Shown: positions 1,440 through 49,413 of the stretch, one piece after another
Layout of the letters: every line of letters starts with the position of its first letter
Position numbering within the stretch: position 1 is the stretch's first letter
Sequence record: MF996376
Reading direction: 5' to 3' (one strand)
Length of the DNA: 49,579 nucleotides
Source of the DNA: Escherichia phage SRT8
The notes under the pieces: generated by a model
What the model was told of the DNA's origin: nothing
The model's input: only the letters and a program-made list of their open reading frames with translations
The model's database searches: none
Made by a program: the position numbers and the translations under genes

Positions 1440-1481
1440 CATGGTTTACCAAATAGTGCTATTTACTTGGAGGATTTACAA

Positions 1482-3299
1482 ATGGCTTTATACAGACAAG
1501 GCGAAGCGTCAATGACGGCAGAAGGACAAGTAACGGGCGTCGGTACTCAATGGCGCGAACCGTTATCCCTGATCCGCAAAGGCGCAACTATAGTTTTCCT
1601 TACTACCCCATTGAAGCTGGCGGTAATCAACACGATCGATAGCGATACGGAAATGACCGCCATTACGACGGACGGCGAAGCGGTGGCGCAATCCAAATAT
1701 GTGATCCTGTTGAATGACTCGTTAACCGTTGACGGCATGGCGCAAGACGTAGCCGAAACGCTTCGTTACTACCAGAGCAAAGAAACGGAAATAGAGGAAG
1801 CAATTGAATTCTTCAAAAACTTTGACCTTAAAACATTACAGGATCTTGTTGCTCGCGCGGAAGCCGCCGCTCAATCGACAAGTGCGGATCGTGCTGCCAC
1901 TGAGCAATTGAAGAATGAAACCAATCAGTTCAGGGCTGGGGCGTTAAATGCTCGTAATGAAGCGGAGGACGCTCGCGACGCCGCTGATATTGCAAGATCT
2001 GGCGCTGAGACTGCAAAGTCTGGCGCTGATACAGCAAAGGCTGGCGCTGAAACTGCGCGTGATGAAGCTCGCCAATGGGCGCAACAGGTACAGCCTGAAA
2101 ATCTGCTGCATAAAGATCAAAACCTTAATGATCTTGCAAACAAAGACCTTGCAAGGAATAATTTGGGCATTGGTGAAACTGACATTCCTGTTTTTAGAGG
2201 AATAAGCCTAACAGAAAAAAACTCTGCAAACTCTGGAATTCTTTATTTAATAAACAAAAGTCCAGAAGATGTACAGCTTTCATACTCAAGAATTTACAAC
2301 GAAATTCAAGGTGGATTAGCAAAATCAACAATACAAGTTACTAGGGAAGGTGGCGACACAAACTATTATCAGTTTGATGAAAGCGGTAACGCGCTGAATT
2401 ACAACTCAATAACAATCGGTAGGGGTATTGGTAATGCTCTTGGCAGTAATTCTCTTGTTATTGGCGATACTGACACAGGTTTGAAATGGGGCAGTGATGG
2501 TGTTTTGCAAGTTTATTGCAATGGTATGAATGTTGCAGCTTATGAAGCGCAAAATATGCACCTTAACGGACTTTTAAATATATGGCCTGTTGATAATAAC
2601 GCTAGCGGCATTAGAGTTTCAGGATCTAGATTTGGGGGCAGCAATGCGTTAATCGGTGGTCAAGTAGCCCCTGGAAGTTTTGAAGTATGGCGAGAACGCG
2701 CTTGTGGTATGCTTGTTGAATTACCTGTTGATGATGCGGCAGTAAACGTCTTTAAGGTTGTTCGATGGGGTGGAGATTGGGCTGCTGGTCTTGATGTTGC
2801 CAGATATAGCGCTGGAGGTTGCGAAGCTCATTTTAATGTAAGGGGCGCTGTTTATGGGTTTAACGATTCTGGTTATGCGTCTGCTGTGCAATGGGTTAAC
2901 ACTTCCGATATTCGCCTGAAAGCAAACCTAAAAGAGATTGAAAGCGCTAAAGAAAAAGTGAAATCAATAAAAGGTTACACTTATTTTAAGCGCAACAATC
3001 TTGATGAAGATGAATATTCTTTCTATTCGGAGGAGGCTGGTGTAATAGCTCAAGACGTGCAAACTGTTTTACCGGAAGCGGTTTACAAGATTTCAGATTC
3101 AGAATATTTAGGTGTTAGCTATGGCGGTGTTACTGCTCTTTTGGTTAACGCGATCAATGAAATGATTGATGATTCAGATAAGCAGAATAAAACTATTCAG
3201 GCTCAACAGGAGGAAATTAAAGAGTTGAAAAACGAGATCGCAGAAATGAAAGCCGCAATTGCGGAAATGCAAGCGCTTATTGTCCAAACTGCTAAGTAA
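1482..3299 (+). CDS. Tail fiber protein with C-terminal intramolecular chaperone (peptidase S74-like) domain
   Basis: C-terminal SDIRLKANLKEIE...EEIKELKNEI region typical of auto-cleaving chaperone domains; Ala/Asp-rich repeats DARDAADIARSGAETAKSGADTAKAGAETARDEA; ATG at 1482 has a GGAGGA RBS (track start 1467 is TTG). Confidence 0.8.
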   Translation: MALYRQGEASMTAEGQVTGVGTQWREPLSLIRKGATIVFLTTPLKLAVINTIDSDTEMTAITTDGEAVAQSKYVILLNDSLTVDGMAQDVAETLRYYQSKETEIEEAIEFFKNFDLKTLQDLVARAEAAAQSTSADRAATEQLKNETNQFRAGALNARNEAEDARDAADIARSGAETAKSGADTAKAGAETARDEARQWAQQVQPENLLHKDQNLNDLANKDLARNNLGIGETDIPVFRGISLTEKNSANSGILYLINKSPEDVQLSYSRIYNEIQGGLAKSTIQVTREGGDTNYYQFDESGNALNYNSITIGRGIGNALGSNSLVIGDTDTGLKWGSDGVLQVYCNGMNVAAYEAQNMHLNGLLNIWPVDNNASGIRVSGSRFGGSNALIGGQVAPGSFEVWRERACGMLVELPVDDAAVNVFKVVRWGGDWAAGLDVARYSAGGCEAHFNVRGAVYGFNDSGYASAVQWVNTSDIRLKANLKEIESAKEKVKSIKGYTYFKRNNLDEDEYSFYSEEAGVIAQDVQTVLPEAVYKISDSEYLGVSYGGVTALLVNAINEMIDDSDKQNKTIQAQQEEIKELKNEIAEMKAAIAEMQALIVQTAK

Positions 3300-6147: not shown

Positions 6148-6375
6148 ATGAAGAAGAAATTTATTGTCGCGGCGATTGCGTTAGCTCTGATTGGTTGTGC
6201 TGATATGCCGAAAAGAACGTGTACCGCTATATACGAATCTAGATCTAACAAATACGAAGTGTATGTGTTCGGAACGAGGCTCAATGGAGGGGAGTTAATG
6301 TTACGCGCCGGATACCCGTTCTCATTTCATTATGTAAACGAAAGGCAATTCACCACTCACGACTGCAAACGATGA
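6148..6375 (+). CDS. Small outer-membrane lipoprotein, Cor-like superinfection-exclusion candidate
   Basis: Signal peptide with lipobox LIGC (MKKKFIVAAIALALIGCAD); 75 aa; own promoter; adjacent to tail genes. Confidence 0.55.
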   Translation: MKKKFIVAAIALALIGCADMPKRTCTAIYESRSNKYEVYVFGTRLNGGELMLRAGYPFSFHYVNERQFTTHDCKR

Positions 6376-16847: not shown

Positions 16848-16870
16848 TAGCACGAATTGCTAAAACAGCG
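16848..16870 (-). promoter_or_regulatory. Palindromic element (aatagcacgaattgctaaaaca) just upstream of the G chaperone RBS
   Basis: Consensus match; follows the hairpin at 16906-16930. Confidence 0.45.
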
Positions 16871-28726: not shown

Positions 28727-28747
28727 GTTTAGCAATTCGTGCTAAAA
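28727..28747 (-). promoter_or_regulatory. Palindromic element cassette (TTTAGCA-ATTCG-TGCTAAA, a perfect 7-bp palindrome)
   Basis: Contains the stop codon of the upstream gene; followed by TATAGTAACCCCATCAAAACAAACGGAG leader. Confidence 0.55.
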
Positions 28748-30428: not shown

Positions 30429-30535
30429 TATTTAACCCCTTTAATTACTTTCGCCACATCTACGATAACGCTATACATAATGTAAGCAAGAAAAAACGTT
30501 AATACCGGGTGCGCTTGCGAATGCGTAAAATTCTG

Positions 30536-31069
30536 TCATAACTTATCTACTCCGTGTGATTTCAGGTGTGAATGTACGTTGTCGCCGTAGTCGGTTACGG
30601 CATAGGTTGTTATTCCAATATTCCTAAAGTGTGGAATAACTGAAGGGCTATCATCCCACGCCGCTAAAATGCGATGCAACCCGATTTCGCGCAAAATCTC
30701 TTCTTTGATTACCGTATCCTTCCGGTTGTCGTCGTGGCGGCGCATGATCAGGAAATCATATTTCGCGTTGTGGTTCGCCAGCCATTCGCGCGACTCCTTT
30801 TCGACTTCATCGCTTCGCCCGGTTAGGATGATTACACAATGCCCGGCTGCATACATCGCATTCATTACCGCGATCGTGTTGGTAATCGGCGTGTCGAAGA
30901 TTGCCGCCCGGTTAAACTCGCTCCAACTTTCAGTTAAGTGAAGATCGGTTTTCGGTAGCAGGTGCAAGCGGTGCGTTCCGTCTGACAAAGTACCGTCGTA
31001 ATCAAAAATACAAATCATCCCGGACGGCGCGTTAGTGCGAAATTCTCTTCCGTATGCGTTAATCTTCAT
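30536..31069 (-). CDS. HAD-superfamily phosphatase
   Basis: DYDGT motif (FDYDGTLSD) near the N-terminus and a downstream acidic motif; start chosen at the ATG overlapping the upstream stop. Confidence 0.55.
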   Translation of the reverse strand: MKINAYGREFRTNAPSGMICIFDYDGTLSDGTHRLHLLPKTDLHLTESWSEFNRAAIFDTPITNTIAVMNAMYAAGHCVIILTGRSDEVEKESREWLANHNAKYDFLIMRRHDDNRKDTVIKEEILREIGLHRILAAWDDSPSVIPHFRNIGITTYAVTDYGDNVHSHLKSHGVDKL

Positions 31070-31191
31070 TATCGTAACCCTTCCCATTTTTCAGCCTGAT
31101 TTTTGCCGCGTTTCTGCGTCTTCTTAACTCGCTTGTAACCTTCGTCGAACTTCTTCGGCTTGCCGACAATCTTTTCGAAGTTTTGGCGCAT
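31069..31191 (-). CDS. Hypothetical small basic protein (about 40 aa)
   Basis: ATG behind the cassette leader CAAACAACAAAGGAG. Confidence 0.3.
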   Translation of the reverse strand: MRQNFEKIVGKPKKFDEGYKRVKKTQKRGKNQAEKWEGLR

Positions 31192-31243
31192 CGGTATTAC
31201 TCCTTTGTTGTTTGCTTTCAATGAGGACACTATAGCAATGCCC

Positions 31244-31266
31244 TCGCGGAAAGTCTTTAGCAAGTC
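31244..31266 (-). promoter_or_regulatory. Palindromic element cassette, variant B (TGcTATAGT in a hairpin loop)
   Basis: Read directly. Confidence 0.5.
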
Positions 31267-31273
31267 GTGCTAT

Positions 31274-31720
31274 TTACCAGTAGCTAATTTCTTCAATAAC
31301 GTAGCTGTCGAAGCTGGCTTGCGAAAAGTCGCTTTCGTAGTCGATGCGGAACGTTTCGATTAATTCGCTGATCGGGTAGCCAGATCTGAAGAAGTAGCCG
31401 TCTGCCATAGCCCGCGACCATTTCTTCGCGTCACGCTTGCACATACCGTAAGTGTTCACGGCCTCTTTGAAGAATGCGCGGTTCATCTTGCGGCGAATTG
31501 CGGTAACGTCCAGATAAGTAGCTGTACCGCCGTACACTTGATAATGATACCTGGACAGGCGCTTCATAATCAGATCCAGATCGCCCGGCTTGCAAATAAT
31601 CGCATCGGTGTGAAGGTAGGTTCGATACGGCTTGATTTCGGTTTCGTGACCGTAAAGACCGGTTTCCGCCATTTTGAGGCCGTCCGCTTCACCCTGAATG
31701 CACACGATCAGTTTGTTCAT
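31274..31720 (-). CDS. Hypothetical protein
   Basis: 148-aa ORF in the early operon. Confidence 0.45.
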   Translation of the reverse strand: MNKLIVCIQGEADGLKMAETGLYGHETEIKPYRTYLHTDAIICKPGDLDLIMKRLSRYHYQVYGGTATYLDVTAIRRKMNRAFFKEAVNTYGMCKRDAKKWSRAMADGYFFRSGYPISELIETFRIDYESDFSQASFDSYVIEEISYW

Positions 31721-31777
31721 TGTTGAATCTCCGTTTGTTGGTGTAGGGGGGAATCATAGCGCATTCCCCGTGATAGG

Positions 31778-31800
31778 TTTTAGCTTTTAGTGCTATTCAC
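31778..31800 (-). promoter_or_regulatory. Palindromic element cassette (motif overlaps the 3' end of the upstream ORF)
   Basis: AATAGCACTAAAAGCTAAAA followed by hairpin GGGGAAT...ATTCCCC and leader. Confidence 0.5.
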
Positions 31801-31998
31801 TTCGATAGTCACGCAAAAATTATCAAAACGATGCCCGCTTAAACGCGCTGTAATCACTTCTGGACGACGCAAAATCGCGTCAAGCAATCGCAAGGGTGAA
31901 TACTTAAAACCGTGATAGTGGGCGCTACGCTTCGAATTTGGGTTCATACCTGCTACCGCGTCCGCCGCTAAATCGTCGTAGTTCACATCACCAGCCAT
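31780..31998 (-). CDS. Hypothetical protein
   Basis: ORF in the early operon. Confidence 0.4.
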   Translation of the reverse strand: MAGDVNYDDLAADAVAGMNPNSKRSAHYHGFKYSPLRLLDAILRRPEVITARLSGHRFDNFCVTIEVNSTKS

Positions 31999-32105
31999 AA
32001 AGCCCCCTTCAAAACGTTAAGTACAATCAGCAATCCCAAAATCCCGGAAAGGAACCATAAAGGCGTATAGTCGGGCGGTTCATTCCAGTGTCCGGCGTCA
32101 ATCAT
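31986..32105 (-). CDS. Possible small membrane peptide (39 aa), below the ORF-track cutoff
   Basis: ATG with GAGG RBS; hydrophobic stretch LWFLSGILGLLIVLNVL. Confidence 0.3.
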
Positions 32106-32157
32106 CGTAAAACCTCAAGTTATGGGGAATCAATCAGCGACAGATTCCCCGTTAAAA

Positions 32158-32472
32158 TTACGCCACGCAAGCTACAGTGGCGACCAACAGGATCACGGCG
32201 GTGAAGATTGCCGGGACAATGTTTTCTTTGCGACGATACCACGGCTTTTTCGCTTCGTCGATTTCGCTTTGCGGTTTCAGCACTTGGAAGACAGCGCCCC
32301 GATCGGCGGCGAATGTTACGCGGTAGAACGTGCCGCCGTGAATCGGCATGCATGGACGCGCCCGGCCTTTGTCGTCGGCTGCGATGAAGTCTTTTTCGCC
32401 GACGCGCACAACGTCGTAAAATCCGCCGATGGTAAATTTATTGGTGTTGTTCGAAACGCATTTAGTTTTCAT
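32158..32472 (-). CDS. Hypothetical protein with C-terminal transmembrane anchor
   Basis: Start at the ATG behind the cassette leader; C-terminal IVPAIFTAVILLVATVACVA. Confidence 0.4.
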   Translation of the reverse strand: MKTKCVSNNTNKFTIGGFYDVVRVGEKDFIAADDKGRARPCMPIHGGTFYRVTFAADRGAVFQVLKPQSEIDEAKKPWYRRKENIVPAIFTAVILLVATVACVA

Positions 32473-32528
32473 TGATGTATCTCCTTTCGTTTGGTGTAGG
32501 GCTATTATGACATAGCCCCGATTCAGTG

Positions 32529-32550
32529 TTTTAGCAAAAAGTGCTATACG
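32529..32550 (-). promoter_or_regulatory. Palindromic element cassette
   Basis: ATAGCACTTTTTGCTAAAA then hairpin and AAAGGAG leader. Confidence 0.5.
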
Positions 32551-32846
32551 TAAACTTTGTTGCACAACGTGCCGGGCAGGATGTTAAACGACAGCATAAC
32601 GAAGTTGTTTCCGTTGTGCGTATCAGCGTTCGCCCGGTTAATGTACTTCGTTACGTCCGTCACATCGGTAATCAGTACACTAACTTCGCGCCCGGTGTAG
32701 TCGCCGTAATGCCACTCGCGCAAGCGCAACACGTCGCCCTCCTGAAAGTCGCGATCGTTCAATCTGAATTCGGCCTTCTTGCCGCCCATCTGGACGCCGA
32801 AAAAGTGAACAGGTTCGATCTTTAAATCGTGTTGCTTGCGTTTCAT
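32544..32846 (-). CDS. Hypothetical protein, possibly ASCH/PUA-like
   Basis: Weak pattern resemblance only (EFRLNDRDFQEGDVLRLREW). Confidence 0.4.
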   Translation of the reverse strand: MKRKQHDLKIEPVHFFGVQMGGKKAEFRLNDRDFQEGDVLRLREWHYGDYTGREVSVLITDVTDVTKYINRANADTHNGNNFVMLSFNILPGTLCNKVYV

Positions 32847-33055
32847 CGCCTACCAACCTCCCGGTAATCCATAGTCAAATCCAATTCCTTACAGCCGCAA
32901 GTGTGCATTTCTGTAGTGTTGACGTCGTGGTATTTGTTCATGCTGTACATTTCCTTCGCGATAATCTCGATCCTGTCGCTTGGGTGAATGTGCGATAACA
33001 GCCCTTCTAGCGTTACCGCCTTGCTGTCGATCTCAAATTGGCGTAGTCGTTTCAT
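32843..33055 (-). CDS. Hypothetical protein
   Basis: ORF, translationally coupled to neighbours. Confidence 0.4.
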   Translation of the reverse strand: MKRLRQFEIDSKAVTLEGLLSHIHPSDRIEIIAKEMYSMNKYHDVNTTEMHTCGCKELDLTMDYREVGRR

Positions 33056-33303
33056 TTAGCCACCCATTTACAACCGCTGTATTTTGCTTGACCGCCATCA
33101 TAGCCGCTATCCATTACGTGAAACTCGATCATGTCATTGGATAACATTTCCGTGATCGCGGAGTGATGCCAGCCAGTTTGATCAACATCCGGGAAATACC
33201 AGAACCTTTCCCCGGATGAATTCACATCCATTACTATGCTTTTGCACTTGCTCTTTTTCAGGCACGATTTAAATCGCTCCTGATCGCGTGTTAATTTTTT
33301 CAT
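33052..33303 (-). CDS. Hypothetical protein
   Basis: ORF, translationally coupled. Confidence 0.4.
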   Translation of the reverse strand: MKKLTRDQERFKSCLKKSKCKSIVMDVNSSGERFWYFPDVDQTGWHHSAITEMLSNDMIEFHVMDSGYDGGQAKYSGCKWVAK

Positions 33304-33593
33304 TTGAACAGTTTCCCCGATTTAAGCTTATTCCAGAACGAGAACGGATTAGCCTTCCGATACTCACCCTCTAAGAACGGATAGTCCGACATTTCGCGAC
33401 CTTCGAAAAGCAGATCGGCAAGGTGGCGATGTTTAGGCTTCGCGAATCGGGCTAACTCTTTCGCGCTTACCAGAACGAGCGAACCGATCGTTTTGTTGAC
33501 TTTTAGTTCAGTTTCGGTCGTCATGCCTTCGGTGATAATGTACTGATTGAGATTGCTCTTGCTGAAATATTGTTCGGTTAAGGTGATTTTCAT
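33300..33593 (-). CDS. Hypothetical protein
   Basis: Start at the ATG behind the cassette leader. Confidence 0.4.
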   Translation of the reverse strand: MKITLTEQYFSKSNLNQYIITEGMTTETELKVNKTIGSLVLVSAKELARFAKPKHRHLADLLFEGREMSDYPFLEGEYRKANPFSFWNKLKSGKLFK

Positions 33594-33659
33594 CGGGTTA
33601 TCTCCTGATTGGTTGCCCTGCTTCAATAAGCCCACTATAACAAATGGGCTTGCGGAAGG

Positions 33660-33677
33660 TTTAGCTATTCGTGCTAT
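33660..33677 (-). promoter_or_regulatory. Palindromic element cassette, variant B
   Basis: Element contains the TAG stop of the upstream gene; followed by GCCCA-tttgttatag-TGGGC. Confidence 0.5.
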
Positions 33678-34189
33678 TCAGCCCACTTGATCGTAGTGCC
33701 GCGCTTCATGCTAACTTCCCCGGCGAACACTTTGTTTTTGAAGCTGTGGTGCAACAGGAAAGTAATCGTTTCGCCGTCAACTTCGATTCGGACGGGATTA
33801 ACGAGAATATCAACCCATCCGCCCGACTCCATGCGGACGCCTGTCAGCTTCGCGCCTAGCGGCATTTGTTCGATTTTGCAGATCCCGCCAGATGTAGCGG
33901 CGGCGCTGGCATTATCGGCTGCGTTATGGATAATCATTCCGGCTGCGTACATTTGACCATTCAGCGAACGCGCATCCGAACGCATCGAATCTTTGTTGTA
34001 GTAGAAATAATCCTTCGCCGGGTTATTGTGCGGATTGCGTAGGTTATGCTGTTCGACGAAGTGCATAACGCTACCGTTATATTTTCCCTCACCTTCCTTC
34101 ACGCCACAATAGCGGCTAGTGAATGTGAAGCGGCCTACGCCGTTGCTGATAAATGTAATTGGATAGATGATATCTTGTTCTTTTAACAT
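33674..34189 (-). CDS. Hypothetical protein
   Basis: 171-aa ORF. Confidence 0.45.
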   Translation of the reverse strand: MLKEQDIIYPITFISNGVGRFTFTSRYCGVKEGEGKYNGSVMHFVEQHNLRNPHNNPAKDYFYYNKDSMRSDARSLNGQMYAAGMIIHNAADNASAAATSGGICKIEQMPLGAKLTGVRMESGGWVDILVNPVRIEVDGETITFLLHHSFKNKVFAGEVSMKRGTTIKWAE

Positions 34190-34241
34190 TGTTGTAACTC
34201 CTTTGTGTGGGCTTCACCACCATAGCGAAGCCCGAATCAAT

Positions 34242-34409
34242 TTACATGAACCAGCCCAACAGGGAACCCAGCGGCGCGATAAACACGCCGATTGCGCGAA
34301 TGATAAGGTTGTTGGTTGTGATATCGCCGAACATTGCGACGATGTTCATAATCCAGCCAGCAACAGCCGCGATCCATAAAGCAATAACCATAAGTGAGAA
34401 TAATTTCAT
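34242..34409 (-). CDS. Small membrane protein
   Basis: Start at the ATG behind the cassette leader; two hydrophobic segments. Confidence 0.4.
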   Translation of the reverse strand: MKLFSLMVIALWIAAVAGWIMNIVAMFGDITTNNLIIRAIGVFIAPLGSLLGWFM

Positions 34410-34465
34410 TTGTGTAACTCCTGTTTCGTTGTTGATGGGCTTACTATATCGCAAGCCCGGATGTG

Positions 34466-34488
34466 CGTTTTAACAAAAAGTGCTATCG
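34466..34488 (-). promoter_or_regulatory. Palindromic element cassette
   Basis: ATAGCACTTTTTGTTAAAA, hairpin, TATAGT, leader. Confidence 0.5.
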
Positions 34489-34965
34489 GATGATTTCTGC
34501 TTCAGCGCCGAAATACTCGTGTCCCTCAATGCAGAAAGTAGGATCGAACCCGCGAACATACATCCCGATTGCCAGTGCGTCGGCCTCGCAGATTGAAACA
34601 GTGTTCAACTGGTCTTCGTCGCGATATCCGTTAACGATAACCGGGAATGTGCGATTGTTGTTAGGCTTGAACGGGTAGTCGCCACTTTCAAGAATGCGCA
34701 CCTTCACTTTGCCGAACTTCGCGATCTCTACTTCGTGGTGCATGAAGAATAAGACGCCTTTTTTCGGGTTGTAGTCAATGCCGCCGCCGTTTTCTTCGGT
34801 AGGCTGTTGCCCGATTGCGCTGTCGTACACGCCTAGCGCTTCCAGATCAGAAACTTTGACGTGATAGCCGCCGTTACGCTCCGTTTCCACCGCATCGACC
34901 ACAATCGGGAAATGGTTAGTCGTGAAGCCCTTGTATCCGCCATTGCAAAAGATTTCGATTTTCAT
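34483..34965 (-). CDS. Hypothetical protein
   Basis: 160-aa ORF. Confidence 0.45.
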   Translation of the reverse strand: MKIEIFCNGGYKGFTTNHFPIVVDAVETERNGGYHVKVSDLEALGVYDSAIGQQPTEENGGGIDYNPKKGVLFFMHHEVEIAKFGKVKVRILESGDYPFKPNNNRTFPVIVNGYRDEDQLNTVSICEADALAIGMYVRGFDPTFCIEGHEYFGAEAEIIR

Positions 34966-35018
34966 GTGTGTATCTCCGTTCGTTGTTGATGTGGTTATAG
35001 TACCCGATCCGCTTGACC

Positions 35019-35039
35019 GGGTTTTAGCAATTCGTGCTA
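35019..35039 (-). promoter_or_regulatory. Palindromic element cassette
   Basis: AAATAGCACGAATTGCTAAAA with the TAG stop of the upstream gene inside it. Confidence 0.55.
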
Positions 35040-35318
35040 TTTAATCCATTCGCCTTTAATAATAAAGTCAGTGAACGCGTCAACCTTAGCGCCGCCACCA
35101 CAATTAAGCGGGTAGCTCCCTGTCGCGTCGTAAAAGTCCGCCAGGCGTTCGGCTATCCAGTTCATGAAACGCGCGTTACGTGACGCTACAGTGCCTTCGT
35201 ATGCTTGCTTAAATCCAAGTGCGGTTACGAATGCGATAAAGCGTTTTTGATAACCGGGCATCGCTTGCACGTTGGCGGCGAAGGCGTGTTGAAATTCAGT
35301 GCGGGTAAAGTTGTTCAT
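35037..35318 (-). CDS. Hypothetical protein
   Basis: Start at the ATG behind the cassette leader. Confidence 0.4.
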   Translation of the reverse strand: MNNFTRTEFQHAFAANVQAMPGYQKRFIAFVTALGFKQAYEGTVASRNARFMNWIAERLADFYDATGSYPLNCGGGAKVDAFTDFIIKGEWIK

Positions 35319-35376
35319 CCTGATAGGTTCCGTTGTCGTTGTCGATGTGTGCATTATGCCCGACTCCGTGCCGGGC

Positions 35377-35396
35377 TTTTTAGCAATTCGTGCTAT
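35377..35396 (-). promoter_or_regulatory. Palindromic element cassette
   Basis: ATAGCACGAATTGCTAAAA plus hairpin GCCCGGCAC/GGAGTCGGGC. Confidence 0.55.
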
Positions 35397-35986
35397 TCTG
35401 CGACTTCTTCGTTTTTACCTCTCAGGGCTTCGACGTGATTTCGAAATTCTTCTAGCAATTGCCTTGCCGTCGATAACTCTTCGTCGTCGTACTTCGTGAA
35501 GTCGGGAACCCACAACGCCAGCGCATTAAATCGAACCGTGTCGATATGCTCACCAGATTGAACAGAATCAGCCTGGACAACCGGAACCGCTTTCGCCTTA
35601 CGTGTGCGGGCGGGCTTCTCGATCGGTTCGTCAGACAGCGTGACCGACACTAAGATTTCGTCGTCTTCATCCCGGCTAAGTGAGATCGCACAATCAAAGC
35701 CAGCTTTCGCAACGTGGCGCTTGATAGTCGGCGCGATGTACGGCGATTTCATCTTCAGGCGCAACAGGCCGTTGTACTGATCCCGGAAGACTCGCGCGTC
35801 GTCGTCCAATTCGTCTTCAGTGCGGGTGACGCCGTGTTCCTCATACTGCAACCGGGCGGCTTCAATCAGCATTTGCAATTCGGTGAAGCTGAATTCCCGT
35901 TCGCCAGCCTGAATCTTCAGCGTGACGATGTGGCGAAGCATTGCGGCGATGTTCGGTTCATTTGCGGAAGGTAGTTTAGTTGACAT
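35393..35986 (-). CDS. First gene of the leftward early operon; acidic hypothetical protein
   Basis: 197 aa, Asp/Glu-rich; strong RBS directly next to the AT-rich hub. Confidence 0.5.
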   Translation of the reverse strand: MSTKLPSANEPNIAAMLRHIVTLKIQAGEREFSFTELQMLIEAARLQYEEHGVTRTEDELDDDARVFRDQYNGLLRLKMKSPYIAPTIKRHVAKAGFDCAISLSRDEDDEILVSVTLSDEPIEKPARTRKAKAVPVVQADSVQSGEHIDTVRFNALALWVPDFTKYDDEELSTARQLLEEFRNHVEALRGKNEEVAE

Positions 35987-36429
35987 GGTTGTTTCTCCTG
36001 ATTGGTTTATGCAGACTTAGACAAAGATTGCACGTTGTATAAGCGCGTAATAATATCTTATTTTTTTGCTTTAGACAACACAATCCAGTAGCGACGCGCG
36101 TCACAAGGCTGTAAACATGCTTGTATAAGATGTATAAGATGTAAGCCCCCATAGAGATATTTAAGCATATGCGCATAAAACACTGTATATATACACAGAA
36201 AATCGCAATATATCAAATTTCACCCTTACATATAATACAAGTTTGACACGCTCTATATACAACAGCGTTTCTACTATATAAAAGCTAATTTAAAACTTAT
36301 TATTATTATATATATCATATAGTTAGCGCTAAACAGGCAGCTCCATGGGGTTGCTCACTTTTGCACCAATTTGTCTAAGTGACAAATCTAGCAAATTTTA
36401 GACAAGGATTACAAGCGTAATTTAGACAC

Positions 36430-36449
36430 GTAGCACGAATTGCTAAAAG
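36430..36449 (+). promoter_or_regulatory. Orphan palindromic element cassette (motif plus hairpin with TATAAC) not followed by a gene
   Basis: gTAGCACGAATTGCTAAAAg then GGGGA...TCCCC hairpin; no ATG with RBS downstream. Confidence 0.45.
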
Positions 36450-36623
36450 TTGGAGGGGAAGACCGTTTCACTCTATAACCTCTCCCCATTTTAATGCTTC
36501 ACAAGCAACAATCATCGCGATTGCGAACAATCACGCAATAATCATAACTTGTCATTTGCAATCATGAGTAATCACTCATTATTCCAGTTATTCCAATCTG
36601 AAGGAATAATCGTATCGGATCAG

Positions 36624-36642
36624 GAATAGCACTTTTTGCAAC
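36624..36642 (+). promoter_or_regulatory. Palindromic element cassette for the first rightward early gene
   Basis: AATAGCACTTTTTGCAACA, then TGgTATAGT, then leader ATCGAAACGAAGGAGA. Confidence 0.55.
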
Positions 36643-36698
36643 ACATCTGGCGGGTAGAGTTGGTATAGTTACTTCATCGAAACGAAGGAGATACAGAA

Positions 36699-36989
36699 AT
36701 GACCACTATCAGCAAAACGACAATCAACTTTGCACGCAAGCGCGGTTTAGACGTTACGATCGAGAACGTTGGCGAAGGTGACTTTATGGCGGTGTGGGAT
36801 CTGAATAATGATTGCGAATGGATGTTCACATATCAGGTCAATGATAACGGTTCATTCACTTATAACGGTAATGTGTGGTTGCCGGAAGATTTGAAAGAAG
36901 AGTTGCCCGGCACACTGAAAGATGAAAAGCACGTTCGCGAAATGCTGGCTTACATCGGCGCTAACCGTCACTTGTGGAAAGACTTATGA
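36699..36989 (+). CDS. Hypothetical protein (first rightward early gene)
   Basis: ORF with AAGGAG RBS. Confidence 0.5.
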   Translation: MTTISKTTINFARKRGLDVTIENVGEGDFMAVWDLNNDCEWMFTYQVNDNGSFTYNGNVWLPEDLKEELPGTLKDEKHVREMLAYIGANRHLWKDL

Positions 36990-37129
36990 TTCGCAGACTA
37001 AGGAATGCAATCGGCATTCACCTTAACGCGATCGAAGCGATGGGGTACGAAGTAGACGTCCGGGAGTTTAATCACCACTACAACCGGATCGAGGCGATAG
37101 AAAAACTTTTAGAACAGATGGAGAAATGA
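36986..37129 (+). CDS. Hypothetical small protein (47 aa), below the ORF-track cutoff
   Basis: ATGA overlap with both flanking genes. Confidence 0.35.
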   Translation: MIRRLRNAIGIHLNAIEAMGYEVDVREFNHHYNRIEAIEKLLEQMEK

Positions 37130-37314
37130 CAGTGAAGATCTTAAAGCGATTCACCAATAAAGGGCAGTGCAAGACACTTGCCGATACCGTAGAACGCAAG
37201 GTCGATTTCTATACTGACAACCTGTTTCGCTTTTGGGGCGATCCGTTTAGCAATCGCGATTTCCTTATTTGGGAAAAGCTGAAGCAATGGCGTAAAACGT
37301 TTTGCGGGTACTAA
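37126..37314 (+). CDS. Hypothetical protein
   Basis: ORF; translational coupling. Confidence 0.45.
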   Translation: MTVKILKRFTNKGQCKTLADTVERKVDFYTDNLFRFWGDPFSNRDFLIWEKLKQWRKTFCGY

Positions 37315-37335
37315 ATAGCACTTTTTGTTAAAACA
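37313..37335 (+). promoter_or_regulatory. Palindromic element cassette
   Basis: AAATAGCACTTTTTGTTAAAA then hairpin GGGGT...ACCCC. Confidence 0.5.
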
Positions 37336-37393
37336 CAATAGGGGTGGTGTGGCATCATTACCCCATCGCAAACGAGACAAGAGGATCACAAGC

Positions 37394-37666
37394 ATGGGAC
37401 AGAATAAGACCGTTACCGAATCAGTGGAATACATCGCCGTTATGACTCTTCGCCCGGACACTATCGCGGTGCAATGCCTTAGCAACAAACAACCCGTTTA
37501 CGTGCCGCGCGACGAAGACGTCGTAGAGTTCTTGACCGATCCGAACTTCCTGTCGTTAATGGAGAAAGTGACCGATCATTACCGCTACGACGACAGAAGT
37601 TTAACGATGGTTCGTCTTGTGGTGAAAGAACGCAAAATCCGCACAACCACGGAGATAATCGAATGA
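37394..37666 (+). CDS. Hypothetical protein
   Basis: ATG behind the cassette leader. Confidence 0.45.
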   Translation: MGQNKTVTESVEYIAVMTLRPDTIAVQCLSNKQPVYVPRDEDVVEFLTDPNFLSLMEKVTDHYRYDDRSLTMVRLVVKERKIRTTTEIIE

Positions 37667-37851
37667 AGAAACAATACCGCGTCGTTGCAAAGAGTCGCGC
37701 AACCGGGAAGGAGTCAGTTTGCTATGCAGGTGATAGCGCCAGCCTTGCGACCGACACTTACGACGACCTGTTGAAGCGCAAAATGTTTATGGAAGATTTC
37801 AAGATCCGGCTTGAAATTATGGAACCCGTAATCGTCATGGAATCCGACTAA
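37663..37851 (+). CDS. Hypothetical protein
   Basis: ORF; coupled. Confidence 0.45.
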   Translation: MKKQYRVVAKSRATGKESVCYAGDSASLATDTYDDLLKRKMFMEDFKIRLEIMEPVIVMESD

Positions 37852-38076
37852 ATGAGAAAGCAAGTAACTTGCCGTTGTCGCGCGTATGACTTCCCGCATA
37901 GATTCGGCGGCGGACGTTGTAACGGGATCGCTATTGTCGAACAGCATTTTCCCGGTTCACTTTGCGGCAGTTGCTTGCTGTTTAACGATGGGTGCGAAGT
38001 CCTCAAAGGACAGGAAAGCCCGTGCGAATGTATGTACGTTCAAGACTTCATCGAATATCAGGAGATTAAATTATGA
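37852..38076 (+). CDS. Hypothetical Cys-rich (possible zinc-binding) protein
   Basis: Ten Cys in 74 aa. Confidence 0.45.
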   Translation: MRKQVTCRCRAYDFPHRFGGGRCNGIAIVEQHFPGSLCGSCLLFNDGCEVLKGQESPCECMYVQDFIEYQEIKL

Positions 38077-38399
38077 TCGGCAAATTGTACGAAATCAACG
38101 TCAAGCGCCTGATTGGTTGGGGCGGAAGCATTTCCGACGCTGTATTGAAAGCTGGCGAAGATTTACAGCCGCACGTATTGGAGCGAGCGAGGGCGGCGGC
38201 ATTACGAAAAGTTGGTGCTGATTTCGAAGATCGTGTGAAATACGTCTACACCGACAGCGCACGAATCCTTATCGACGAACCGACAGGCGAAGAGATTATC
38301 CGCTTCAGTCCTTTGCAGCATAACAGCTACGAAGATATGAAGAAGACCGGGAGAGTGATTTTATCAGTTCAATACGCGACGTGGGACAATAAGCAATGA
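38073..38399 (+). CDS. Hypothetical protein
   Basis: ORF; coupled. Confidence 0.45.
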   Translation: MIGKLYEINVKRLIGWGGSISDAVLKAGEDLQPHVLERARAAALRKVGADFEDRVKYVYTDSARILIDEPTGEEIIRFSPLQHNSYEDMKKTGRVILSVQYATWDNKQ

Positions 38400-38551
38400 T
38401 TCGATATTACAACCACGAAACGAAATCATGGTATGTAATCGTAGGTCAACATGTACGCCGCTTAATGAAAGATGGTAGTTGGATTATCTCAGATCGCTAT
38501 AGTGTCGCCGACGTTGCGCATTATCCATTTACCTGGCATCGCGTCAAATAG
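38396..38551 (+). CDS. Hypothetical small protein (51 aa)
   Basis: ATGA overlap; its TAG stop lies in the next palindromic element. Confidence 0.35.
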   Translation: MIRYYNHETKSWYVIVGQHVRRLMKDGSWIISDRYSVADVAHYPFTWHRVK

Positions 38552-43480: not shown

Positions 43481-43588
43481 TTAAAATCCGTTGAAGTTGC
43501 CAGCTAAAGACAGAACCCACAAGAAGAACCCGGTAACAGCTACGCCAGCAACGAAAGGTACTACGGTTTTGATGATGAAGTCTTTCAT
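43481..43588 (-). CDS. Small hydrophobic peptide (35 aa), possible membrane-active or lysis-timing peptide
   Basis: MKDFIIKTVVPFVAGVAVTGFFLWVLSLAGNFNGF behind a full cassette. Confidence 0.35.
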   Translation of the reverse strand: MKDFIIKTVVPFVAGVAVTGFFLWVLSLAGNFNGF

Positions 43589-45559: not shown

Positions 45560-45614
45560 TGCTTATCTCCGTTTCGTTTTGATGAAATAATAATACCCGA
45601 CTTTCGCCGGGTAC

Positions 45615-45634
45615 GTTTAGCAATTAGTGCGATC
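45615..45634 (-). promoter_or_regulatory. Palindromic element cassette (variant GATCGCACTAATTGCTAAAC)
   Basis: Contains the stop of the upstream gene; hairpin and TATTAT box follow. Confidence 0.5.
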
Positions 45635-45851
45635 TGACGCCTAAGAATTCGCGCAAGTCGTTTTGTATGATTGAATCCCACAATTCGAACGGCTGATTCT
45701 TTATCTCTTCGAATGACATATCAAGGCAATCCGTAAAACTCCACAAGTCGCCGTCTACCATTTCTTCGACCATCGCGCTTTCAATCGCCGCGCACACCAT
45801 TGCACGATACAGGAGGAATAATTTATTCTCGCCGATAAGTAAAAGTTTCAT
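45624..45851 (-). CDS. Hypothetical protein
   Basis: ORF. Confidence 0.4.
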   Translation of the reverse strand: MKLLLIGENKLFLLYRAMVCAAIESAMVEEMVDGDLWSFTDCLDMSFEEIKNQPFELWDSIIQNDLREFLGVRSH

Positions 45852-46564
45852 TAAATATTCCTCGCTTTTGCACGTTTATTTTTCACTGAAGGGCAAATGT
45901 CCGCAATGCTCACATAATGCGTTTGTTGTGTCTCGCCTTCTTTAAGTTGGCGAATGACGAACAGAACAGAGCCTTTGTTATTTCCGTCTACTGGCTTCCC
46001 GGTAGCGCCCGAAATGAAGGCCAACCGTCCAGATCTGGCGAATTCCGTTCCGTCGATATCTTCCCACAAATCACCCTCGATCCAGATGATTTCCGCCGCG
46101 TTACGTCGCGCTTCTGTAAACCATGCCGTAGAGTTATCGGCAGGTAACAGCATATCAATCTGGTTTCCGTGTTCCATTTGCTCGATCGCTTTCTTAACGA
46201 ACACGTCCGGGCGACTATATGGCGGATTTAGCCAAACGTGTTTATTTTTACCCCACCAGCGTTTTAAGCAGTTTGTTTCCTGCGAATAAAACTTGTCGCA
46301 CACTTTATTTTCTTCGCTGGCGGCGGCGTCAAGATCATATTTACCGAAGCGGCCTTCCATATATGCCACGACTTCGCGCGGAGTAGACCATAAGTCGCGA
46401 ACCGCGTCCGGCGTATTGGTTCCCTTATATCGGCGACCGGATACGATATCTTCAGGGCGCGGCCTTACATATTGATAATGACCGCCAGTTACTAACCCGG
46501 CGCGGGCAAACTCGCAACCTGTGCCGAATGTGTCGATTGTCACTTTATCGTTTTCGTCTTTCAT
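45851..46564 (-). CDS. DNA N6-adenine methyltransferase (Dam-like)
   Basis: NPPY catalytic motif (WLNPPYSRP) in a 237-aa protein. Confidence 0.75.
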   Translation of the reverse strand: MKDENDKVTIDTFGTGCEFARAGLVTGGHYQYVRPRPEDIVSGRRYKGTNTPDAVRDLWSTPREVVAYMEGRFGKYDLDAAASEENKVCDKFYSQETNCLKRWWGKNKHVWLNPPYSRPDVFVKKAIEQMEHGNQIDMLLPADNSTAWFTEARRNAAEIIWIEGDLWEDIDGTEFARSGRLAFISGATGKPVDGNNKGSVLFVIRQLKEGETQQTHYVSIADICPSVKNKRAKARNI

Positions 46565-46567
46565 CGC

Positions 46568-46879
46568 TTATGCTCCGTAAATTTCGCACTGAAGGTTAGT
46601 AATTTCGTGGCTATTGGAAAGCATCTTCCCGGTGAATCTGTCGCGAATCAATGCCGTGTTTTTGAAGAACTGATAGCGCGACTTGTAATTCAGGACAGAA
46701 CGAAAATCTTGTCCGTGAACTTTACCGCCAATCGTTAACGCTTCGGTTACGGCGTTATATTCGATCTGCTCGGTGTATTCGTGACCGTCGAACGTGTAGT
46801 CGCAATCATAATTAATATTGAAATCCTTCGCGCTAACTGAAGCGGCGAATAACATTGCGAGAAGTGCTAATTTTTTCAT
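46568..46879 (-). CDS. Secreted / periplasmic small protein
   Basis: N-terminal signal peptide MKKLALLAMLFAASVSA; cassette leader upstream. Confidence 0.45.
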   Translation of the reverse strand: MKKLALLAMLFAASVSAKDFNINYDCDYTFDGHEYTEQIEYNAVTEALTIGGKVHGQDFRSVLNYKSRYQFFKNTALIRDRFTGKMLSNSHEITNLQCEIYGA

Positions 46880-46933
46880 TTCTTTGTCTCCGTTGTTTCG
46901 ATGAAGCTATTATGCCGAATTCCCTTTCGGCTG

Positions 46934-46955
46934 TTTTAGCTATTCGTGCTCTTTT
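46934..46955 (-). promoter_or_regulatory. Palindromic element cassette (motif forms the 3' end of the VRR-NUC coding sequence)
   Basis: AAAGAGCACGAATAGCTAAAA followed by hairpin and leader. Confidence 0.5.
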
Positions 46956-47365
46956 AGCATTTCTTCGACAGCTAATTTAAATTGCTCTACGCCATAGGCG
47001 ACGGCGGCGAATCCTCCACGTTCGCGAACCTTACGCAAGAAAGATTTCTGTTCGTCGCTGACTAGTGACGCCTTTCCTTTGCCCGACTTATTGACGCGCT
47101 TCAATTCGATAGCGCCGAACGGGTAGCGGTGATTAAAACCAATCAGGAACACGAAGTCGCTAACGCCTTTCAATAATCCCGATTGCTGATCTATCATCGC
47201 CGTAACCTTGCTTTTCTCGTTCTCGTTCACGCTATGCCAGAACAGTAATTCAGGATGCCGAACCTTAACGAACGATGTACTTTCAATCTGGTGATTAACC
47301 TCCTTCCGTGTGTCGCTTGGATCGCGTTCGTAGAATTCTAAGTAGTCGCCTTTGTCGGTTATCAT
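46940..47365 (-). CDS. VRR-NUC domain nuclease (PD-(D/E)XK fold)
   Basis: GVSDFVFL...GAIELKR pattern typical of VRR-NUC; ATGA coupling with the helicase gene. Confidence 0.55.
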   Translation of the reverse strand: MITDKGDYLEFYERDPSDTRKEVNHQIESTSFVKVRHPELLFWHSVNENEKSKVTAMIDQQSGLLKGVSDFVFLIGFNHRYPFGAIELKRVNKSGKGKASLVSDEQKSFLRKVRERGGFAAVAYGVEQFKLAVEEMLKEHE

Positions 47366-49413
47366 TGCGGTATTTCCTCCATGCCGAAATCTTTACGGCT
47401 GATTAAGTCTTCTTTCTTCGCGTTCTTGCGGTGCGTCACGCGAACCGGGGCGGCGATGTGGTGCGCGTACTGCATGATCTTGATTGCGTTCTTCATGCCG
47501 ATGAAGTATTTGCGCATCTTCGGATCTGATACGTGCGGCAACACACCTTTAGTTTTCCACAACGTACCGCACACTTTCGCTTCGGATTCCGGGAAGAATC
47601 GTTCGTATGCGTTGAACTCACCTTCGCCGTTATCTAACACGTAATGGAATATTATTCCCTTTCTGTTTTTGGTCAACTGTACTTCGAACTTTTTAACGTC
47701 GTACCAATCGTTTTTCGTGTACGCCTTCCCGGATAGCTTCAGGTTAGGATCGACTAACGACACATCGCAACAACGACAGACACGCGCCACGACGTCATTT
47801 TTCGCCCCGCAACCTTTTACAAGGATCTTACCCGTTTTTTCGTCCTTCTGGTCTTCGCACGTTTGATACGTCCAGAAGTGTTCACATCGCTTTCCGTCGA
47901 TTACGTTAACACAACGGCGGGCGTAAAAGCTGTTTTCGTGTCCGCATAGTTCGCATTTCTTCGGATCTTTACCTGTTTCAAATCGACGTTGGTATTGCGC
48001 TTGCTCAAGTATCGGATCGAAATAAAGTTGCCCTAATTCGTCCATTGTCCCGGCGAAGTCCCAAACAAGATGATCTGTCTTCACCATTCCCGCTTCAATC
48101 TGCCATTTCTTCAGAAGTCGCATTCCGCGCCCTAAAAGCTGAATCAGCAAGGTAAGCGAACCAATCTTGCGGAGGATTACAGAGAAATCCCAATTCGGCA
48201 CGTTCACGCCAGTAGTTAACGCCATAACCTGAAACGTGTACTTAATCTTCCCGGCGCGAACGTCGTCTAAGATTGCCTGTCGTTGCTTCGCGTTGGTCTT
48301 GTCGGTAATGATCGCGTAAGTGCTTCCGGGCGGTAGTGCGGCGGCGGCTTCTTTGCAATGCCTTTGCCCGGCGCAAGTGATTAGAACCGCGTTCCGCTTC
48401 TCCGCCTCCTTTGCGACCATGTGCATAATCTGTTCGGTTAAAGACTTGTTCGCCAGCGCTTCGGCTTCCATCTTTTTCAAGTCTTTGTCGCTGAAGTCCG
48501 CTACGCCGTCTTCGCTGGATGCCGTGAAGCTGTCGTAGTTGTAGTGAACGCCTGAAGTAGATCCGAATACTGTCGGCACAACGGAACCGAATTCGATCAG
48601 GTAGTTGGTATCAATGTTCGTTACCTGCTCACGCCAGAATCCGACCATCTTCGGATTTTCGACAAGAATCGGCACAACTCCGCGATATTCCGATCCGGTC
48701 ATTCCGAACACTCGCAATTCGTGACCGTGAACCTCACGACAACGACGCATCATTTCAACAATGATTACGGTGTACTGTGAACGCTTTGTCCCGGTGACAG
48801 GTAAACCGTCTTTACCGATCAGCGGAATATCGCCATTCATTACGATTTGACCTTTATCCGCCGTCATTTGTTCGTAAGATTCGTCGCCCTCAATCGCTTT
48901 CGCTACGTCTTCCCAATCGACTTGGTGACATTCATCGATCCCGATTACGTGCGGCACGAAGTCGGATAGTTCGTTAAACAGGCCGTTACCGACAGTACCT
49001 TCGGAACCGACTACGATCGGGAAGTAGCAAGACTTGATACCCAGCGACGCGGAAAAGATAGAGTTAGGAACTCCGAAATTGTCGATCTCTTCACTATCCT
49101 GATCGACAATCTCACCCTGTCGGGCAAGAACCATCATTTTCAAGCCCATAGCTTGACACTGTTTCGCAACCATCGCGAAGATGATTGTTTTACCTGCCGA
49201 TACCGACGCCTTCACATAGAACGGGTGTTCGTAGTCCTTACCTAAGCGCTTCGCGATCTCGAAGTACGCCGCGACCTGATATTCGTAAGGCTTAATGTCG
49301 CCGACAGTGAAGCGCTCTTGTGTGCGCATGATATACTCTTCGCCCAGCATTTCGATCTGCTTTTTGATGTTTTGCGTTTTGAAATACTGTCGCGTTTCGT
49401 TGCTAATTTTCAC
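47362..49413 (-). CDS. Superfamily 2 DNA helicase (DEAH/DECH box) with C-terminal zinc ribbon
   Basis: GKT Walker A region, DECH motif (GIDECHQVD), Cys-rich C-terminal segment; GTG start with AAGGA RBS. Confidence 0.75.
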   Translation of the reverse strand: MKISNETRQYFKTQNIKKQIEMLGEEYIMRTQERFTVGDIKPYEYQVAAYFEIAKRLGKDYEHPFYVKASVSAGKTIIFAMVAKQCQAMGLKMMVLARQGEIVDQDSEEIDNFGVPNSIFSASLGIKSCYFPIVVGSEGTVGNGLFNELSDFVPHVIGIDECHQVDWEDVAKAIEGDESYEQMTADKGQIVMNGDIPLIGKDGLPVTGTKRSQYTVIIVEMMRRCREVHGHELRVFGMTGSEYRGVVPILVENPKMVGFWREQVTNIDTNYLIEFGSVVPTVFGSTSGVHYNYDSFTASSEDGVADFSDKDLKKMEAEALANKSLTEQIMHMVAKEAEKRNAVLITCAGQRHCKEAAAALPPGSTYAIITDKTNAKQRQAILDDVRAGKIKYTFQVMALTTGVNVPNWDFSVILRKIGSLTLLIQLLGRGMRLLKKWQIEAGMVKTDHLVWDFAGTMDELGQLYFDPILEQAQYQRRFETGKDPKKCELCGHENSFYARRCVNVIDGKRCEHFWTYQTCEDQKDEKTGKILVKGCGAKNDVVARVCRCCDVSLVDPNLKLSGKAYTKNDWYDVKKFEVQLTKNRKGIIFHYVLDNGEGEFNAYERFFPESEAKVCGTLWKTKGVLPHVSDPKMRKYFIGMKNAIKIMQYAHHIAAPVRVTHRKNAKKEDLISRKDFGMEEIPQ

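Follow-up and report, generated by a model that had tools for sequence, protein, structure and literature searches.

An exchangeable gene for a predicted exported protein between VRR-NUC and dam in the T1-like phage SRT8

Based on the 49,579-nucleotide (nt) record of Escherichia phage SRT8 (MF996376; hereafter the window), we describe here two adjacent minus-strand genes: dam, encoding an orphan N6-adenine DNA methyltransferase of the phage T1 type (237 amino acids (aa); 45851..46564), and a gene encoding a 103-aa protein that is predicted to be exported and belongs to an orphan family (46568..46879). The two genes are 3 nt apart (TAA GCG ATG). A GGAG ribosome-binding site is located 12 nt before the ATG of the 103-aa gene (46888..46891, minus strand), and dam has a GGAG at the same distance from its own ATG, embedded in the Tyr-Gly-Ala codons with which the 103-aa gene ends (46573..46576, minus strand). 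Every gene from the helicase to the lysis cassette is on the minus strand, in the order helicase, VRR-NUC nuclease, 103-aa gene, dam, five small genes, exonuclease, two small genes, holin, signal-arrest-release (SAR) endolysin and spanin. Positions 45600-47400 are 99.7% identical to Citrobacter phage IME-JL8 (MT023084; Drexlerviridae, Tunavirinae, Sertoctavirus), in which the 103-aa gene is annotated as QIG62064, and 94.6% identical to Escherichia phage BrunoManser (Bas12), in a match that is split into two pieces. The window corresponds to the IMG/VR contig UViG_2974594196. The paper describing IME-JL8 mentions neither dam nor the 103-aa gene.

The N-terminus of the 103-aa protein, MKKLALLAMLFAASVSA followed by KD, has the features of a Sec signal peptide cleaved by signal peptidase I (SPase I; aa 1-17, 46829..46879, minus strand). 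It consists of a basic n-region (MKK), an uncharged hydrophobic core (LALLAMLFAA, with a best 10-residue Kyte-Doolittle mean of 2.71) and the segment SVSA before the predicted cleavage site, at which V occupies position -3 and A position -1. No lipobox ([LVI][ASTVI][GAS]C) was found in the protein; its first cysteine is residue 26, nine residues past the cleavage site. Export is thus predicted by rules for signal peptides, and by these rules the original prediction of a classical signal peptide with no lipobox is borne out; it also holds across the homologues described below. The predicted mature form has 86 aa, a mass of about 10 kDa, an isoelectric point of 5.5 and two cysteines, Cys26 and Cys98. 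When the same type of rule-based scan was applied to all open-reading frames (ORFs) of the window, the 103-aa gene was the sole non-lipobox candidate with a Shine-Dalgarno (SD) sequence of the GGAG class, a plausible SPase I site and no annotated function; the other matches were mostly short ORFs in alternative frames, and the rest were small membrane proteins and the SAR endolysin.

Homologues of the 103-aa protein are scarce. Two clusters out of 5.8 billion were recovered by word-seeded searching, and when 1.84 billion representative proteins were searched exhaustively with HMMER, only two convincing homologues (P0002 and P0003) emerged. These show 49-54% identity, with 41 invariant positions that include both cysteines, and their SPase I-type signal peptides differ in sequence (AKA before E, and ANA before V). 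A C-terminal Gly-Ala is invariant in all of them. Every copy of the gene lies between VRR-NUC and dam, with dam immediately downstream, in loci whose gene order is T1-like. Three long repetitive proteins (P0004-P0006) were rejected as homologues: their match spans 57 residues at 32% identity, starts inside the signal peptide and is inflated by 12 tandem repeats, and we treat it as a chance similarity of beta strands. In P0003 (L076:6001-6408), a 32-residue Ala-rich linker of low complexity separates the signal peptide from the conserved domain, and in the slot a gene for a 151-aa lipoprotein precedes P0003.

By the Nei-Gojobori method, the two distant homologues differ by dN 0.25 and dS 1.13 (nonsynonymous and synonymous substitutions per site, respectively; dN/dS about 0.22), and the window gene gives pN/pS values (proportions of nonsynonymous and synonymous differences) of 0.37-0.42 against them, with dS saturated. 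These values indicate purifying selection. The gene has a GC content of 42.9%, compared with 48% for the window. Because it has a GGAG 12 nt upstream, is annotated in IME-JL8, has homologues that keep the signal peptide and the cysteines, and shows a dN/dS of about 0.22, the 103-aa ORF is more than a chance frame: it is a real gene under purifying selection.

The gene is also an exchangeable accessory cassette. A blastn comparison with BrunoManser showed 95-96% identity on both sides of positions 46565..46864 (minus strand) and no match across them, and at this site BrunoManser encodes an unrelated protein of 77 aa that lacks a signal peptide. In T1 itself, and in a relative with a 93% identical VRR-NUC, the slot between VRR-NUC and dam holds no gene (about 60 nt). 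Upstream, the cassette is bounded by a conserved intergenic element (46873..46950, minus strand) that comprises a box (AGCACGAATAGCTAAAAC), a hairpin (46914-46931), CATAAT, CATCGAAAC, an SD sequence and ATGAAA. An alignment of the junctions gave the consensus AGCAC(G/T)nnT(A/T)G(C/T)TAAAAC, hairpin, (C/T)AT(A/T)AT, CATCGAAAC, GGAG and ATGAAA. This element stands directly before dam in empty slots and before the inserted gene in filled slots, and it is present twice where two genes have been inserted (L003 and L076); it thus marks the boundaries of the inserted genes. On the upstream side, the box starts at 46940-46950 (minus strand) inside the last codons of VRR-NUC (...GAG CAC GAA TAG), so that the element overlaps the codons for the C-terminus of this nuclease.

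The element is not confined to this junction. Altogether 21 copies of about 75 nt were found in the window (nhmmer E < 0.01), with the layout of a box AGCAC(G/T)nnTTGCTAAAAC, a variable hairpin, a hexamer like TATAGT or CATAAT, an SD sequence and ATG; in at least 19 of the 21, a downstream gene can be recognized within 90 nt by its SD sequence and start codon. The 20 copies other than the one at the slot start at 16849, 36628, 37317, 38550, 39061, 39560 and 41723 on the plus strand and at 28743, 29377, 29851, 31271, 31794, 32545, 33675, 34484, 35038, 35394, 43660, 45630 and 49491 on the minus strand. In the RefSeq record of T1, the equivalent hairpin is annotated as a rho-independent terminator, and the element may serve as a promoter, as a terminator or as a site for a regulator. 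Gene-shuffling boundaries of the promoter-stem-loop (PeSL) type are known from T4-type phages. As with these, a repeated element combining a hairpin with expression signals flanks small accessory genes and, in the loci surveyed here, is duplicated where extra genes are inserted. However, the sequence and the phage family are different, a promoter role of the element is putative, and the equivalent hairpin in T1 was called a terminator by its annotators.

To place the cassette among its relatives, we examined the slot in 74 related loci in which both flanking genes are present, with envelope targeting predicted by rules. The slot was empty in 16 of the 74, and in three others the gap held no intact ORF, one of these gaps resembling a disrupted lipoprotein gene. 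The remaining loci hold 62 slot genes: 41 for predicted lipoproteins, 12 for proteins with a signal peptide or anchor, four for small transmembrane (TM) proteins and five for apparently cytoplasmic proteins. Hence 57 of the 62 are predicted to be envelope-targeted, in contrast to about eight of the approximately 80 genes elsewhere in the window. The occupants include small lipoproteins (phrog_7420, phrog_4281 and one of 151 aa), signal-peptide proteins and tiny TM proteins. As automatic clustering merged families through their signal peptides, families were counted by eye, which gave about 13 unrelated ones, approximately nine envelope-targeted and four cytoplasmic. An exported protein at this slot is therefore typical of the Drexlerviridae rather than odd, and the earlier suggestion that such a protein is unusual for an early phage product is not supported; the word early, moreover, concerns a temporal class that sequence alone does not reveal. 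Periplasmic products are also known from other phages, such as Spackle of T4 and Sim of P1.

The methyltransferase half of the original prediction, which concerns dam, is upheld. In profile searches, its 237-aa product scored 220.9 bits with Pfam PF05869 (Dam; cut-off 28.1, E = 1.1e-65) and 221.5 bits with the equivalog TIGR01712 (phage_N6A_met; cut-off 97.05), and it also matched phrog_111 and the PADLOC orphan methyltransferase model (oMTase; 454 bits); the catalytic NPPY motif is encoded at 46217..46228 (minus strand; aa 113-116). The protein is 80% identical to Dam of T1, which is itself one of the surveyed phages (locus L011, 100% identity), and relatives are present in 1185 phage records. 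It is therefore the standard enzyme of the family, already known and ordinary. Like Dam of T1, whose type (PF05869/TIGR01712) also includes the Dam proteins of HP1/HP2 and Stx phages, it has NPPY, is encoded downstream of a helicase and VRR-NUC, and lacks a restriction partner; the difference from T1 is that an extra gene separates dam from the upstream expression element in the window, and otherwise nothing is notable. The target of the Dam enzymes of T1, HP1 and VT-2 is GATC. By this relationship, the window enzyme most likely methylates GATC on the phage DNA independently of the host Dam.

The same prediction held that the methyltransferase probably protects the phage DNA from restriction, and this can be retained only in a narrow form. 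Dam methylation could shield solely against GATC-specific enzymes of the MboI/DpnII type. GATC occurs at 271 sites in the window with an observed/expected ratio (O/E) of 0.96, that is, without depletion, and GAATTC (38 sites) is likewise not avoided. Other sites are scarce: CCWGG occurs eight times in 49.6 kb, GGCC and CTAG have O/E values of 0.33 and 0.45, respectively, and GGATCC, CTGCAG and GTCGAC have no sites at all. Because CCWGG, GGCC and several 6-mers are so strongly depleted, the phage seems to counter other restriction enzymes by avoiding their sites. The authors of the BASEL study describe the Drexlerviridae as "mostly" considerably sensitive to restriction-modification (RM) systems (PMC11990801). 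Given this sensitivity and the avoidance of other sites, any role of Dam against restriction is narrow, and other functions are just as possible, such as the full methylation of GATC during fast replication.

What, then, might the 103-aa protein do? We suggest that in this T1-like virulent phage dam and the 103-aa gene are probably co-transcribed, and that the cassette was inserted between dam and the box-hairpin-SD-ATGAAA element that would drive dam in phages without the cassette. It would thereby have taken over the ribosome-binding site and start codon of the element and have given dam a new GGAG in its own last codons. The product would be exported by Sec, cleaved after VSA17 and set free in the periplasm as a soluble protein of about 10 kDa that is rich in beta structure and probably contains a Cys26-Cys98 disulfide. 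In the periplasm of the infected cell it may act on an envelope component or on a component of an incoming phage.

Phage-encoded periplasmic proteins that bear signal peptides and act in superinfection exclusion are represented by Spackle (Sp) of T4 and Sim of P1. The 103-aa protein resembles them in being small, accessory and non-essential, in its predicted cleavable Sec signal peptide and soluble periplasmic state, and in coming from a virulent or lytically growing phage. However, it shows no sequence similarity to them and matches no PHROG or Pfam family, and Spackle is helical whereas the 103-aa protein is predicted to be beta-rich. Among the explanations considered, we favour, although only tentatively, that the 103-aa protein is an accessory periplasmic factor for protection or exclusion comparable to Spackle and Sim. 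It would provide a second layer in addition to a receptor-masking protein that the phage already encodes.

That protein is a 75-aa lipoprotein of the Cor superinfection-exclusion family (MKKKFIVAAIALALIGC followed by AD; 6148-6375, plus strand; phrog_1119, E = 1.8e-25). Its gene is located in the region that aligns with the tail-tip and receptor-binding protein (RBP) locus of BrunoManser, on the strand opposite to the tail genes, and its counterpart there is bas12_0025. Since Cor is already present at the RBP locus, the 103-aa protein is not the primary receptor mask, and we consider it unlikely as a receptor-masking exclusion factor. Llp and Rtp45, two known exclusion lipoproteins of about 6 kDa, are encoded beside the gene for the receptor-binding protein and act from the periplasmic side. 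In comparison with Cor, Llp and Rtp45 (of T1-, T5- and Rtp-like phages), the 103-aa protein is similarly small and predicted to be exported, with a putative intramolecular cysteine pair and a proposed action from the periplasmic side, but it is about 10 kDa, lacks a lipobox and is encoded between VRR-NUC and dam rather than beside the RBP gene. The modulation of the envelope or a receptor, as originally predicted for this protein, is thus plausible, and simple masking of a receptor is less likely.

Several points weigh against this explanation of the two genes. The 103-aa protein had no match in Pfam (even at E up to 10), PHROGs, NCBIfam, PADLOC or the PDB sequences, where a sequence-profile search returned only noise. 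Its AlphaFold2 model, built from a four-sequence alignment, is all-beta but unreliable at a predicted local distance difference test score (pLDDT) of 49, and a Foldseek search with this model also gave only noise. The family is very rare, being known from three lineages, and by this rarity the gene is clearly dispensable. A nearly identical gene is present in L004 together with a different lateral tail fibre (54% identical), so that the gene does not track this determinant of host range, and a coupling to the type of lateral tail fibre was rejected. In addition, the signal peptide is a rule-based prediction, the preponderance of envelope proteins in the slot is a correlation observed in phages that are related and not a series of independent events, and the GATC specificity ascribed to Dam is taken over from its relatives.

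A second explanation is that the 103-aa protein is a soluble periplasmic inhibitor of a peptidoglycan hydrolase, corresponding to PliC, whereas the MliC/PliC-like lipoproteins in the slot of other Drexlerviridae would be its anchored counterparts. It would hold back the SAR endolysin of the phage until the holin is triggered, or inactivate muralytic enzymes arriving from outside. The commonest slot occupant, phrog_7420, is a lipoprotein family without an assigned function that is confined to T1-like phages (for example, L040:2714-2992, L023:2708-2974 and L028:2708-2992), and it is modelled as an eight-stranded beta-barrel (pLDDT 90.9). The best PDB matches of this model include MliC/PliC and Brucella PhiA, with avidins and lipocalins scoring equally, and no sequence-profile similarity behind the likeness to MliC/PliC was found. 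MliC, a lipoprotein, and PliC, a soluble protein, form a known pair that differs in anchoring alone. A Y-x-C-[DG] motif near the N-terminus and a cysteine near the C-terminus are common to the 103-aa protein, the phrog_7420 lipoproteins and MliC/PliC; with MliC/PliC (PF09864) and PhiA, the 103-aa protein also shares predicted export and a size in the range of about 85-100 aa, and lipoprotein as well as soluble versions exist. Set against the eight-stranded beta-barrel of MliC/PliC, which is closed by an N-to-C disulfide, it has Y-x-C-D and the C-terminal cysteine, and its model is all-beta but of low confidence (pLDDT 49), with an uninformative fold search.

However, the barrel evidence belongs to another family and not to the 103-aa protein, and profile-profile comparisons with the slot lipoproteins and with MliC reached a probability of only about 1%, with just the 7-8 residues of the Y-x-C motif aligned. 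Homology to phrog_7420, as suggested by the pattern Y-x-C-[DG] ... C-[EK]-[IV], was rejected as unsupported, since hhalign gave a probability of 0.3-0.6% with at most seven residues aligned and there was no PHROG match. Membership of the MliC/PliC family was rejected as well: PF09864 was not matched at E up to 10, hhalign gave 1.2% against a 119-sequence alignment, and the inhibitory-loop motifs SxSGAxY and YxxxTKG, which are present in the E. coli, Pseudomonas aeruginosa and Brucella proteins, are absent from the 103-aa protein and its homologues. The E. coli MliC sequence used as a reference matches PF09864 and is 100% identical to PDB 2f09 over 83 residues. Furthermore, MliC and PliC act on C-type lysozyme, whereas the phage endolysin belongs to PF00959. 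We therefore regard an inhibitor of this kind as unlikely.

A third explanation, that the protein counters a periplasmic or envelope-based anti-phage mechanism of certain Citrobacter or other enterobacterial hosts, draws on the difference of the cassette between the Citrobacter phage and the almost identical phage of E. coli K-12, and on the rapid turnover at the slot. Host defences that act in the periplasm do exist, such as HXS, which is reported to block DNA entry (PMC13128918). However, the 103-aa protein has no similarity to known anti-defence proteins and no PADLOC-related partner, and the other carriers are metagenomic; such a role seems quite improbable. The weakest explanation, that the gene is a dispensable passenger kept for its position between dam and the expression signals of dam and for the ribosome-binding site that it gives to dam, with no envelope function of its own, would fit its absence from T1 and many relatives, the unrelated cytoplasmic protein of BrunoManser, and the placement of the dam SD sequence in the last codons beside the invariant Gly-Ala, but it is very unlikely in view of the purifying selection along the whole protein (dN/dS about 0.22), the 41 positions, including both cysteines, that are invariant at 49-54% identity, the retention of signal-peptide features despite sequence change, and the strong bias of the slot to exported proteins.

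Outside the slot, the window and BrunoManser are 95-96% identical across most of the genome by genome-wide blastn, with 81-92% identity in a region of small genes (32840-38401). Apart from 46565-46864, the stretches without a match are the distal part of the lateral tail fibre gene (1829-3289) and four short ones within 30429-34412. The fibre gene (1467-3299, plus strand) encodes 610 aa, and the protein is 47% identical overall to that of BrunoManser, a divergence that fits the different hosts of isolation (Citrobacter freundii and E. coli K-12). The four short stretches (30429-30545, 32548-32839, 33065-33296 and 34238-34412) are all among small genes of unassigned function and are probably further replacements of the cassette type.

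VRR-NUC (46940..47365, minus strand; PF08774, E = 6.7e-09), the conserved upstream flank of the slot, is found upstream of dam in all of the surveyed related loci except one, and is labelled a Holliday-junction resolvase in one T1 record; the neighbours of dam are VRR-NUC, the helicase and small proteins without an assigned function. Elsewhere in the window, a 35-aa protein with a single TM segment is encoded at 43481-43588 (minus strand), and its C-terminal 21 residues are 62% identical to a 34-aa TM protein that fills the VRR-NUC/dam slot in L044, L050, L051 and L058. This gene too is preceded by a copy of the repeated element (43660), and one and the same small gene seems to move between cassette sites.

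Taken to its full extent, our proposal would be that the VRR-NUC/dam junction is a dedicated site for the exchange, through the box-hairpin element, of accessories acting in the periplasm or at the outer membrane, and that the 103-aa protein is a soluble periplasmic factor with a new fold that blocks either a stage of infection by competing phages or a muralytic enzyme, forming a second layer of exclusion of the Spackle/Sim kind beside Cor. This combined view is doubtful. The slot and the element at its boundary, as described here, are the most useful outcome, and the 103-aa protein is a lead rather than a discovery. It appears as a new and rare member of the broad class of phage-encoded accessory proteins targeted to the envelope, outside the known families and among the very few predicted soluble periplasmic products of T1-like phages. 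The slot itself is a compact and easily engineered site for interchangeable genes acting on the envelope. If the slot genes do set exclusion, lysis or host-specific fitness, they would be relevant to the choice and combination of therapeutic Drexlerviridae, such as phages of Citrobacter, Klebsiella and E. coli, and would likewise offer new small binders for targets in the envelope.

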